From the NCBI GenBank assembly GCA_036504095.1, contig DASXVS010000002.1, positions 118,184 to 182,183 of the forward strand: DNA of 64,000 bases, given 5' to 3'. This DNA comes from Armatimonadota bacterium (lineage in GTDB: Bacteria; Armatimonadota; DTGP01; JAKQQT01). The first letter of the stretch is position 1, and each line of letters begins with the position of its first letter. Position numbers and translations under genes: made by a program. Under the pieces are notes generated by a model, which was not told where the DNA came from, made no database searches, and saw only the letters and a program-made list of their open reading frames with translations. This document shows, one piece after another, positions 55,040 through 57,354 of the stretch.

Positions 55040-55726
55040 TTATTCTGGCACGGGAGGCGCAGCCTCCAATCGCGACTTTTCGTCTTTCTCTTGCTGCTTG
55101 ATTCTGCTCAATGTCGCTAAGGCCTCCTCTCGCACGTCGAAAGTGATCGTATTGGAATTGAGAAGGTCATCAAGCAGTTTCTTGATGGGAGCACGATCAT
55201 TGAGAGTCAGCGTGACCCCTTTGGAGACGATCTCGTCGCTCGACAAGAGGACCGATCCACCCAGCGCCACGTGGCGGATCTCCCCCGGTGTTCGGCCATG
55301 AACCTCAATCCAAATGATGGATTGCGAGATATAGGCGCCAAGCGCCGGGATTATAGTCTTCAGGACTACCGGATCCTTGGTAGTGCGCGCAGCGGTGATC
55401 AGCCATGGAAGCAATCGCCGATCGAGCAAATGCGACACACCGTCCGCAACAGGCTTGAGCCACGTTGCATCAGCACGGGTCTGTTCGATGAAGTCCAGAT
55501 AGACGGGCGCGGCGTCTATGCCATAGAATGGAAGGCTCTTGAGGGCATCCTCTTTCTTCGTGCGAACAGTAGTGCTGCTTTTCAATATCCTCTGGATGCT
55601 CACAGCGCCCGCTTTGCCATTCCCATATTTCTGGAACAGAGACTCGCGCTCTCCGGCATAGGCGGGGGGCGATGCCGCCGCCATTACAGCGAGATACCCG
55701 ATGTAGATGAATGATAGGGATTTCAT
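55040..55726 (-). CDS. Hypothetical secreted protein in a low-GC islet
   Basis: Signal peptide MKSLSFIYIGYLAVMAAASPPAYA; local GC about 52% against about 65% in flanks. Confidence 0.45.
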   Translation of the reverse strand: MKSLSFIYIGYLAVMAAASPPAYAGERESLFQKYGNGKAGAVSIQRILKSSTTVRTKKEDALKSLPFYGIDAAPVYLDFIEQTRADATWLKPVADGVSHLLDRRLLPWLITAARTTKDPVVLKTIIPALGAYISQSIIWIEVHGRTPGEIRHVALGGSVLLSSDEIVSKGVTLTLNDRAPIKKLLDDLLNSNTITFDVREEALATLSRIKQQEKDEKSRLEAAPPVPE

Positions 55727-55739
55727 GTTCAGTATCCTT

Positions 55740-57354
55740 TCACGGGCACGGCACGTAGACTTCAAGGCCACTATTGGGATCATGCCATGGGAAGTTGTAC
55801 TTATCCACTCCGCCAAGATAGATGTTCGTTGGATGACCCGTAGGAGGAGGTGACATCGCAGCCGAAAGCCCAGCGCTATACTGGTCTACCCGATCACGGC
55901 AGCGTTGGGTATACACGGGGTAAGACTCGGTGTTGCCATTTGAAACGTCAGTCTCCAGAGAAGGGCGTATCGGGTTCTGTAAGAGCCATAACCTTCCCAA
56001 AGCCCAATGGCTTGTGTAGGGCAGATTGGTTGCTGGATCAACCTTTGTCGTAGTCGCCAGTCCTTCATGTACGCTCACATTCTCAAATTGTTGGCTCCAG
56101 GAAAAGAACTGAGGGGGGGCACTGGTTCGAGCTGTATGCCGATATCATGCTTGCTAGATCCCGATTCATGTAGGCAATGACATCCCAAGTCGGCGAGAAA
56201 TTCGTAACGTAGTTGTACCCTTGATTCGGACCAGACGGTACGAAGTCCGTGACCAGGTTGCCGGTATAGGCAGGGTTCGGAGTAGCAGTTGTGCCTAGGT
56301 CTTTGGGAACGCGAGGTGGCTGATGCTCATTCAGCGGATTGTTGGCGCTATTTGTCCCATCGCTAGGTTGTGCAGGGAACGGCCCATCCGGCCAGTCCCT
56401 TGGGGCCACTGTTATTGCTCTGGACCCGGTGCTGGCAGCACACGCGCTGCGCACGGTTCCGACGCTGATAAACAATACGATCGTTTCCAACAACTCGGCG
56501 CATCCAGGTGGCGGCATCTGCGGCGAAGGTTGCTCAGCCAGCTTATTGGACTCGTAGACTTCCTTCGTGCCTTCCGCATAAACATCAGCTCTGGTTACAT
56601 CGACGCGTGCCTTGAGGTCGGGGCGCAAAGTACCAAGCACATCGAGATACGCCAGAGCCTCCTGATGCCGGTCCACCGCGCCGAGGTCCTCCACGATTCT
56701 AAAGGCGGCTTCCTCGAACTGCGCGCTGTCGGGGTACTTCTTCGCATAAGCCTGGCCGGCGGTGATGGCTTCGGTGTATTTGCCGGCCGAGTGCGCGGTG
56801 TACGCCATCTGAAACAGGATGTCCTGCGCGTGCTCGGGTTACGCACCCCGGATGCTCTGGAACTGCTGATACGCCGCAGACCAATCGCCGGTCTGTTTGT
56901 AGTAGTCGCCGATCAGCAGGTCGGCTCGCGCCATATCGGTCTGAATCGTTGCCGCGCCGCGGCGCTGTTTCAGCAGGGCAAGGACATACTTCTCCTTGGC
57001 CGCGTCACCCTTGGCGTGGTACCGCATCGTCAGTTTGTGAAGCACCTCCGGCCAGCGGTAATCGGGACTGGTGGACGAAAGCAGTTCGAAAGAAGCGATG
57101 GCGTCGTCATCCATACTGGAGGACTCTTGAACAATGCCCGACCAGAACAGAGCCTGCTGTTGGAGATCGGCGGTGGGGTTGGCGGCCAGGATGGCCTTGT
57201 ACTTGGCGAGGGCCTCGGTGGACTTTCCTACTTTGAAAAGGTGGTAGGCGGCGCCGAGGTCGGCTGATGTTGGTGCTGTCGTCTGCGCGCAAACGGGGCA
57301 GGCGAACAGCAGGGGAAGGGAGAGGGCCGTGAAAAGGCCCATGCGAACTCGCAT
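55740..57354 (-). pseudogene. Secreted TPR-repeat protein gene disrupted by an in-frame TAA and a frameshift at a homopolymeric tract
   Basis: Three consecutive minus-strand ORFs read as one protein if the TAA at 56839..56841 is read through and one nucleotide is skipped at the G7/C7 run 56113..56119; TPR-like sequence continues across the TAA. Confidence 0.5.
56113..56119. repeat. Homopolymeric G7 (C7 on the coding strand) tract at the frameshift site
   Basis: GAGGGGGGGC; a +1 shift here joins the ORF ending at 56083 to the ORF starting at 56078. Confidence 0.6.

Follow-up and report, generated by a model that had tools for sequence, protein, structure and literature searches.

The region analysed here lies on the minus strand of a 64,000-nt stretch of contig DASXVS010000002.1, taken from an Armatimonadota metagenome-assembled genome (MAG; assembly GCA_036504095.1) and called the window below. 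From 55040 to 57464, this stretch very probably holds a degenerate copy of a three-gene cassette, the first two genes of which appear from comparison with homologous loci to have been inactivated by three independent lesions. Read in the direction of transcription, the locus consists of a promoter and a leader, the remnant of a gene for a tetratricopeptide repeat (TPR) protein, the remnant of a second gene (gene 2), and an intact third gene (gene 3). The cassette family is known so far only from Armatimonadota. The JGI metagenome contig 3300035523|Ga0376481_000140 (locus L003) was 100% identical to the window over 54000..58500, a match which is no independent check if the window derives from the same assembly.

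The intact cassettes that the original prediction had suggested looking for were found. The gene order TPR gene, gene 2, gene 3 was observed in L001, L002, L004-L009 and L018-L021, and such a cassette would encode on one strand a periplasmic TPR protein of ~412 aa, then a putative Sec-secreted effector (gene 2) and then a partner protein with a signal peptide (gene 3). The effector would combine an N-terminal PKD/Ig-like module, common to the family, with a variable C-terminal domain. Two intact cassettes, L001 and L002, come from the same metagenome (JGI sample 3300035523) but from other contigs, Ga0376481_000063 and Ga0376481_000420. The accessions of their proteins, HEY3411679 and HEY3412148, are close to HEY3411602 of the window, and all three are titled MAG TPA Armatimonadota, from which we infer one MAG as the source of all three cassettes. 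At the DNA level the window was 83-85% identical to L001 and L002 over 56680..57470, including ~115 nt before the start codon.

The TPR gene remnant (56530..57354) retains codons 1-275 of ~412 and encodes a signal peptide followed by BamD/YbgF-like TPR repeats, as shown by homology to P0001-P0006 and by TPR matches in Pfam. These six homologs, all from Armatimonadota metagenomes, are 411-416 aa long. Compared over residues 1-275 only, the remnant showed 67-77% identity to P0001-P0005 and 58% identity to P0006. Both the tblastn end points and the alignments showed that the homology ends at residue 275, which corresponds to 56530 in the window, and no trace of the last ~137 TPR residues was found anywhere in the 64 kb. 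The Pfam families TPR_6, TPR_16 and YfiO were matched in the TPR reading, and one of these matches spans a stop codon. This stop, a TAA at 56839..56841, lies in frame between the open reading frame (ORF) 56839..57408 and the ORF 56083..56808. As shown by codon alignment, it stands in place of a conserved tyrosine, Tyr172 (TAT), which is invariant in the TPR homologs. Tyrosine codons (TAT or TAC) were found at this site in seven loci, with TAT in the five closest (L001, L002, L012, L014 and L018) and TAC in L004. Given TAT in the closest loci and TAA in the window, one T-to-A substitution accounts for the lesion. That the TAA might be read through or recoded was also considered, and was ruled out by the tyrosine at this site in the homologs together with the truncation of the gene.

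The TPR family resembles BamD, YbgF (CpoB) and LapB-type periplasmic TPR proteins in its signal peptide and its TPR repeats. The Pfam YfiO match, at 25.2 bits, lies just above the cut-off of 25, and the best NCBIfam matches were below their curated cut-offs (TIGR02795, tol_pal_ybgF, 45.6 vs 90.1; TIGR03302, OM_YfiO, BamD, 40.6 vs 81.4). The cassette protein thus differs from BamD and YbgF in scoring far under the curated thresholds for membership, and its gene differs in having several copies and in its linkage to effector genes instead of tol-pal or bam. The ratio of nonsynonymous to synonymous substitution rates (dN/dS) of the remnant was 0.15-0.17 against L001 and L002, and that of the intact pair L001-L002 was 0.147. 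As the remnant equals the intact pair in this respect, most of its divergence would have accrued under purifying selection, which suggests that the TPR gene was inactivated recently.

The second lesion is a deletion, the junction of which was placed at 56470..56532 by tblastn end points, alignments and blastp. The last TPR-homologous codon (..KLAEQ, 56530) is followed in frame by sequence from the middle of gene 2. Relative to the intact cassettes, ~0.9-1.0 kb is missing, comprising TPR codons 276-412 (137 codons) and gene 2 codons 1 to ~165-200, and the effector signal peptide and N-terminal module are taken away with it. Because the in-frame fusion leaves no stop codon, the deletion was invisible to the earlier reader of the sequence. 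The resulting chimeric ORF (56083..56808) starts at an internal ATG and runs through the TPR tail, the junction and the gene 2 fragment for 241 aa. It is 100% identical to P0008 and is listed at NCBI as HEY3411602 (VGM51_00950), 'hypothetical protein', "MAG TPA: Armatimonadota bacterium".

The gene 2 remnant (55740..56529), identified by homology to P0012, the 418-aa gene 2 protein of L004, consists of the C-terminal domain only and is read first in frame 0 (56529..56113) and then in frame 1 (56117..55740, including the stop). The frames meet at a C7 tract (G7 on the plus strand; 56113..56119) that lies within Cys-Pro-Pro codons and, by comparison with P0012, has one C too many. From this tract, frame 0 stops 30 nt later at 56083..56085, and frame 1 runs on to 55740. 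When the tract was read as C6, it gave QCPPQFFSW, collinear with QCPPTYLSI of P0012, and residues 16-237 of the repaired remnant were aligned by blastp with residues 203-402 of P0012 across the tract (34% identity, E 1e-31). The DNA of P0012 at the tract site is TGTCCCCCA, i.e. C5.

The original prediction had described a single TPR gene with two lesions, which a +1 shift would join to the downstream ORF. Its in-frame TAA and its G7/C7 frameshift were both confirmed, as the homologs encode tyrosine (TAT/TAC) at the former and dropping one C at the latter restores collinearity with P0012, and the decay that it proposed is borne out in that both disrupt the reading relative to intact homologs. 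Its gene model had to be replaced: there are three lesions over two genes, the frameshift lies in gene 2 and not in the TPR gene, and it is the ~0.9-1.0 kb deletion that fuses two different genes. The opposing possibility of three independent genes was correct in part, namely in that the TPR gene, gene 2 and gene 3 are separate in the orthologs.

A phase-variable contingency locus, in which slippage in C7 would toggle the effector on and off, was another suggestion of the original prediction. The 7-nt homopolymer does lie exactly at the frameshift, and the cassette promoters of this MAG also contain G tracts of differing length (G7, G8 and G11). However, a return to C6 would still leave the upstream TAA and the loss of the signal peptide and N-terminal module. 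The frame of a contingency gene is otherwise intact, whereas here the TAA and the ~1 kb deletion both lie upstream of the tract, so that frame restoration would not restore a gene. Moreover, the intact homolog has only C5, and conservation of the Cys-Pro-Pro motif does not extend to the wider family. With the upstream frame dead, the switch is not supported, and we consider it highly improbable.

The C-terminal domain of gene 2 (type C, P0012 residues ~186-418; ~215 aa) belongs to a larger family. A word-index homolog search with the repaired remnant returned the window's own ORF only, and the same search with intact P0012 returned generic PKD proteins only. The representative search, for which the query was a three-row alignment of exact fragments, gave 124 relatives (P0025-P0146), 26 of them with E <= 1e-10. 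The usual place of the domain is the C-terminus, or close to it, in secreted multidomain proteins that contain PKD or Big_2 domains, and the domain is covered by no Pfam family. In an alignment of 37 members, the near-invariant residues were R41, G90-P91-N92, H143-E144, S154-H155 and E173. The domain gave a confident AlphaFold model, and neither a sequence-profile search nor Foldseek found a close solved structure in the PDB; matches to zincin-like folds were weak only. A catalytic Cys in QCPP, as in a CHAP/NlpC-like enzyme, was ruled out, as this Cys is not conserved in the domain family. Judged by eye, some members also seem to have a lytic-transglycosylase-like region, with no such Pfam match.

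Gene 3 (55040..55726) is intact and encodes a 228-aa protein that has a signal peptide and faintly resembles HEAT repeats (HEAT_2, E 0.0012, below the Pfam cut-off). It was identified by a JGI gene call and by homology to gene 3 of L004 (31% identity over residues 43-222, E 2e-25), and its product may be the partner of the gene 2 C-terminal domain, possibly an immunity protein. Four distant loci with a type-C domain were sampled (L022-L025), and in all four a signal-peptide protein is encoded downstream of the domain-bearing gene. Profile comparison of gene 3 with the partners in L023/L024 gave a weak match (hhalign probability 41%, P 2.7e-4, 138 columns), and no similarity was found to those in L022 and L025. 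Downstream of gene 3, inspection by eye of 54864..55039 showed a GC-rich hairpin (GGACGCC...GGCGTCC) without a T run right after the gene 3 stop, and short GATGAA-type repeats in the interval between gene 3 and the LptF/LptG gene.

The cassette family is rare, with four loci found in scans of 185,579 species genomes and the JGI metagenome set, none of them syntenic with the window. Within a genome, the N-terminal ~245 residues of the TPR proteins are nearly alike (P0001-P0002 90%, P0004-P0005 96%), whereas identity between species is 73-76%. The C-terminal parts group by cassette type across species, at 82-88% for P0001/P0003/P0004 and 77% for P0002/P0005. This pattern indicates that the paralogous TPR genes (L001, L002, L012, L014 and L018) have probably been homogenised in their 5' part, the signature of gene conversion confined to that part. 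Disruptions were also seen elsewhere in the family. Relative to L014, the Rhs gene of L016 and L017 has frame-disrupting deletions of ~25-30 nt and ~80 nt with short microhomology at their ends, gene 2 of L007 has two 1-nt deletions relative to L004, and a Fimbriimonadales TPR homolog (L011 10004..11156) has an in-frame stop and a frameshift. These disruptions in the cassettes of other samples are either recurrent decay or assembly noise.

We also weighed whether the true genome is intact and the TAA, the extra C and the ~1 kb gap are artefacts of base calling or of mis-assembly across paralogs. The source is a MAG, and the same sample contains two paralogous cassettes with 83-85% identity over ~790 nt, which brings a risk of graph tangles; the small disruptive indels in homologous effector genes of other samples are possibly artefacts too. 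Against this, three kinds of lesion fall within 1.3 kb, while the remaining ~60 kb consists of dense long ORFs with a GC content at third codon positions (GC3) of ~0.8, and the only other coding G7 (12439..12445) lies within an intact 332-aa ORF. The junction is outside the stretch shared by the paralogs, as similarity to L001/L002 ends at ~56680 and they have no counterpart beyond the junction. Furthermore, the window copy differs from both paralogs by 15-17% and is a third sequence in its own right, and a deletion of ~1 kb is no base-calling error. An artefact is therefore an unlikely explanation of the locus.

The composition of the locus was then compared with that of the rest of the window. 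GC content was 0.558, 0.536 and 0.546 in the 500-nt segments of 55001-56500, and the mean of the window was 0.637 (sd 0.022, 1500-nt segments). Among all 1500-nt segments of the 64 kb, the one starting at 55101 had the lowest value, 0.543. The low-GC stretch of the original prediction, given as 55040..56700, does hold the GC minimum of the 64 kb, but the block extends over ~55040..56530 and not to 56700. Nor is it an islet carrying a TPR gene: the TPR remnant has a GC content of 0.60-0.61 and a GC3 of 0.73-0.75, and the low values belong to the gene 2 remnant and gene 3 (GC 0.52-0.57, GC3 0.54-0.64; neighbouring genes GC3 0.86-0.92). The same dip, from mid-TPR over genes 2 and 3, was observed in L001, L002 and L004. 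As the sister cassettes share it, low GC is a trait of the variable genes in this family and no evidence of recent foreign insertion.

These results bear on the main proposal of the original prediction, that a foreign islet with one TPR gene was recently acquired and is now decaying. Such an origin would fit the block being the strongest compositional outlier in the 64 kb, the restriction of close relatives of genes 2 and 3 to Armatimonadota metagenomes, and the different neighbourhood of the cassette on each contig. It is opposed by the sister cassettes with the same GC dip, by the position of the TPR gene mostly outside the low-GC block, and by the spread of the lesions across two genes. At least three paralogous cassettes are apparently present in one MAG, and the homogenisation of the TPR 5' parts within genomes (90% and 96%, vs 73-76% between species) points to long residence. 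Of the usual marks of a genomic island, atypical composition was found, and the others were not: no integrase, transposase or tRNA was present among the called neighbours (LptF_LptG, DUF4149 and FAD-oxidase genes), no tRNA scan having been made, and at the block borders a search for direct and inverted repeats found none of significance. Horizontal acquisition in this form is thus doubtful at best.

Decay of a resident cassette copy accounts better for these observations. In the proposed course of events, a T-to-A change would have turned the Tyr172 codon of the TPR gene from TAT to TAA, ~0.9-1.0 kb would have been lost between TPR codon 276 and effector codon ~165-200 with the remnants happening to join in frame, and insertion of one base would have lengthened C6 to C7 in the effector C-terminal domain, gene 3 being left intact. 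The loss was presumably tolerated because two intact sister cassettes are apparently in the same genome bin, and it was probably recent on an evolutionary scale. With these sister cassettes present, the locus would represent ordinary gene decay in a little-known cassette family. Like other bacterial pseudogenes, it shows all three classic types of lesion relative to intact homologs (nonsense, deletion and homopolymer slippage): a premature stop at a sense codon of the homologs, a truncation by deletion, and a frameshift within a spanning alignment. Its chimeric fragments are annotated as 'hypothetical protein'. It differs from them in that relaxed selection was not detected as a raised dN/dS; the low value of the remnant (0.15-0.17) gives no sign of long neutral drift.

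Upstream of the TPR gene, a sigma-70-like promoter was read directly from the sequence at 57438..57464 on the minus strand. It consists of TTGACA (57464..57459), a 15-nt spacer ending in G8 (57451..57444; C8 on the plus strand) and TATAAT (57443..57438). A consensus promoter scan did not pick it up, because the scan admits spacers of 16-18 nt only. The -35 hexamer is conserved in the paralogous cassettes L001 and L002. The G8 of the window corresponds to G7 in L002, with a 17-nt spacer and TAGAAT, and to G11 in L001 (both ~9895..9935), and the spacers of the three paralogs measure 15, 17 and ~18 nt. In a related species the promoter tract is interrupted, GGGGCAAGGGG, and is invariant in 7/7 loci compared, from five metagenome samples. 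The cassette promoter could be slippage-tunable. Phase variation by homopolymers in promoter spacers is known from Neisseria porA/opc and Bordetella fim. The cassette is like these in having a G tract between good -35 and -10 hexamers, with a length that varies among paralogs, but it differs in that the length differences are between paralogs and in that the tract of the related species does not vary.

Between promoter and start codon lies a conserved 5' leader of ~75 nt (57355..57431), in which the stem CUUCUCGCGC / GCGCGAGGAGG is predicted to pair with the Shine-Dalgarno sequence GAGGAGG (57367..57361). The prediction is based on conservation and on one compensatory change in the inner stem, UA to CG (GUG/CAC to GCG/CGC). 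Within this MAG the leader occurs in near-identical form before four genes, and it is also conserved in another species. One of the leader-bearing genes is an unrelated 342-aa HEAT-repeat gene, with which the signal peptide is also shared. Copies were located at 5988..6067 and 9926..10006 in L001, at 9926..10006 in L002 and at 7927..8006 in L014 and L018. A search of 54500..58000 against Rfam gave no match.

As for the function of the intact cassettes, the gene 2 proteins share a signal peptide and PKD/Ig-like N-terminal ~170-240 residues, and their C-terminal domains are unrelated. The N-termini are homologous among gene 2 of L001, L002, L004 and L011 and the Rhs protein of L014 (E 1e-7 to 2e-36); in the window copy this module is deleted. 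The type of gene 3 changes with the type of the effector C-terminus, the window agreeing with L004 and L001 with L018, and L002 having a third type. In L014-L016 of the related species, an RHS/YD-shell protein of 1535-1538 aa, split into 1233 + 201 aa in L016, is encoded immediately after the TPR gene (P0004), and over its first ~240 residues it shows homology to the N-termini of the gene 2 proteins (E 1e-31 and 2e-36). In L014-L016 this RHS protein is followed by small ORFs and by orphan Rhs-tip/YD-shell fragments, an arrangement that is absent from the window itself. An Rhs protein that shares its N-terminal module with gene 2 and lies directly behind the TPR gene suggests a system of the polymorphic-toxin kind. 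Rhs/YD-shell loci with small-ORF arrays and orphan tips were noted at 9227..17239 in L014 (also in L015 and L016) and at 14290..21251 in L004, lying directly downstream of TPR cassettes or convergent to them.

We infer from these arrangements that the cassettes may be polymorphic-toxin-like, with the TPR protein as accessory factor, the product of gene 2 as toxin or enzyme, and that of gene 3 as neutralising partner. The features by which polymorphic toxins are recognised are present: a common N-terminal module with differing C-termini, a covarying downstream gene, and association with Rhs/YD proteins. A three-component polymorphic toxin system with an accessory gene has been described in the S8-PTS of Gram-positive bacteria, and rapid remodelling of loci is typical of polymorphic toxin systems (PMC9424270). 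The cassettes resemble Rhs/YD-repeat and related Sec-dependent systems, S8-PTS among them, in their accessory gene, their secreted protein with a conserved N-terminal module and variable C-terminus, and their covarying downstream gene. At one orthologous locus the shared N-terminal module heads a full Rhs/YD-shell protein, followed by arrays of orphan Rhs tips, and the cassette loci are diversified and often damaged. In contrast to the known systems, the cassette accessory is a periplasmic TPR protein and not a peptidase, T6SS (type VI secretion system) component or CdiB-type transporter. In addition, no cassette C-terminal domain matches a known toxin family, and toxicity is putative here. 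No match to known toxin or immunity families was found for the gene 2 C-terminal domains or gene 3, PADLOC reported nothing relevant, and among the genes adjoining the cassettes no component of T6SS or contact-dependent inhibition (CDI) was seen.

Several points weigh against reading the locus as a decayed toxin-like cassette. With a signal peptide and a length of 220-335 aa, the gene 3 proteins are unlike typical immunity proteins, which are small and intracellular (PMC9424270). That gene 3 is intact lacks statistical meaning, as three lesions per ~1.6 kb would predict ~1.3 in its 0.69 kb, with P(none) ~0.27 by our own estimate. The membership of the three cassettes in one genome rests on binning and accession proximity and not on a closed genome, and the lesions are those of an assembled metagenomic sequence. 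Finally, the synteny LptF/LptG, cassette, DUF4149 was found in none of the relatives by the genome and metagenome locus scans (four loci).

Compatible with decay of the first two genes is the possible retention of gene 3 by selection, as an orphan partner protecting against the same effector of neighbours. Gene 3 is the sole intact gene of the window cassette, and it has a plausible ribosome-binding site, AAGGA, ~9 nt before its ATG. It also covaries with the type of the effector C-terminal domain, and signal-peptide proteins follow the same domain in distant loci, one partner pair being weakly similar to gene 3. On the other hand, chance alone would leave 0.69 kb intact about a quarter of the time, by our own estimate from lesion density, and the 15-nt spacer of the cassette promoter is non-optimal. 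Binding or protection by gene 3 is a putative role, and its single-sequence AlphaFold model has a pLDDT of 42. We regard selective retention as a tentative proposal, less likely than not.

Taken to its furthest extent, the comparison would describe an undescribed Sec-dependent three-component polymorphic-toxin system of Armatimonadota, a proposal that we put forward only as a speculative one. It would comprise a periplasmic TPR accessory, effectors in which a PKD-like delivery module is joined to an Rhs cage or to small enzymatic tips, including the new ~215-aa domain, and periplasmic neutralising partners. Its promoters would have slippage-prone G tracts, and a leader RNA would mask the Shine-Dalgarno sequence. 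The window copy would have been recently disarmed, keeping only the protective partner gene.

The finding itself is routine: a pseudogenised operon copy, split by the current annotation into 'hypothetical proteins', that should be annotated as a pseudogene. Its value is that it leads to a small cassette family, not described before, in a phylum that has been little studied. The pseudogene is ordinary; the family, an undescribed variant among polymorphic-toxin-like loci, is of modest interest and ties a TPR protein to secreted effectors of the Rhs type and of the small-tip type. It also offers a 124-member domain without a Pfam model, 5' homogenisation, a structured leader and G tracts in promoter spacers. 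If the toxin reading is true, the family would show how members of Armatimonadota deliver polymorphic toxins, and the window would be a record of a cassette in decay that has kept its partner gene.

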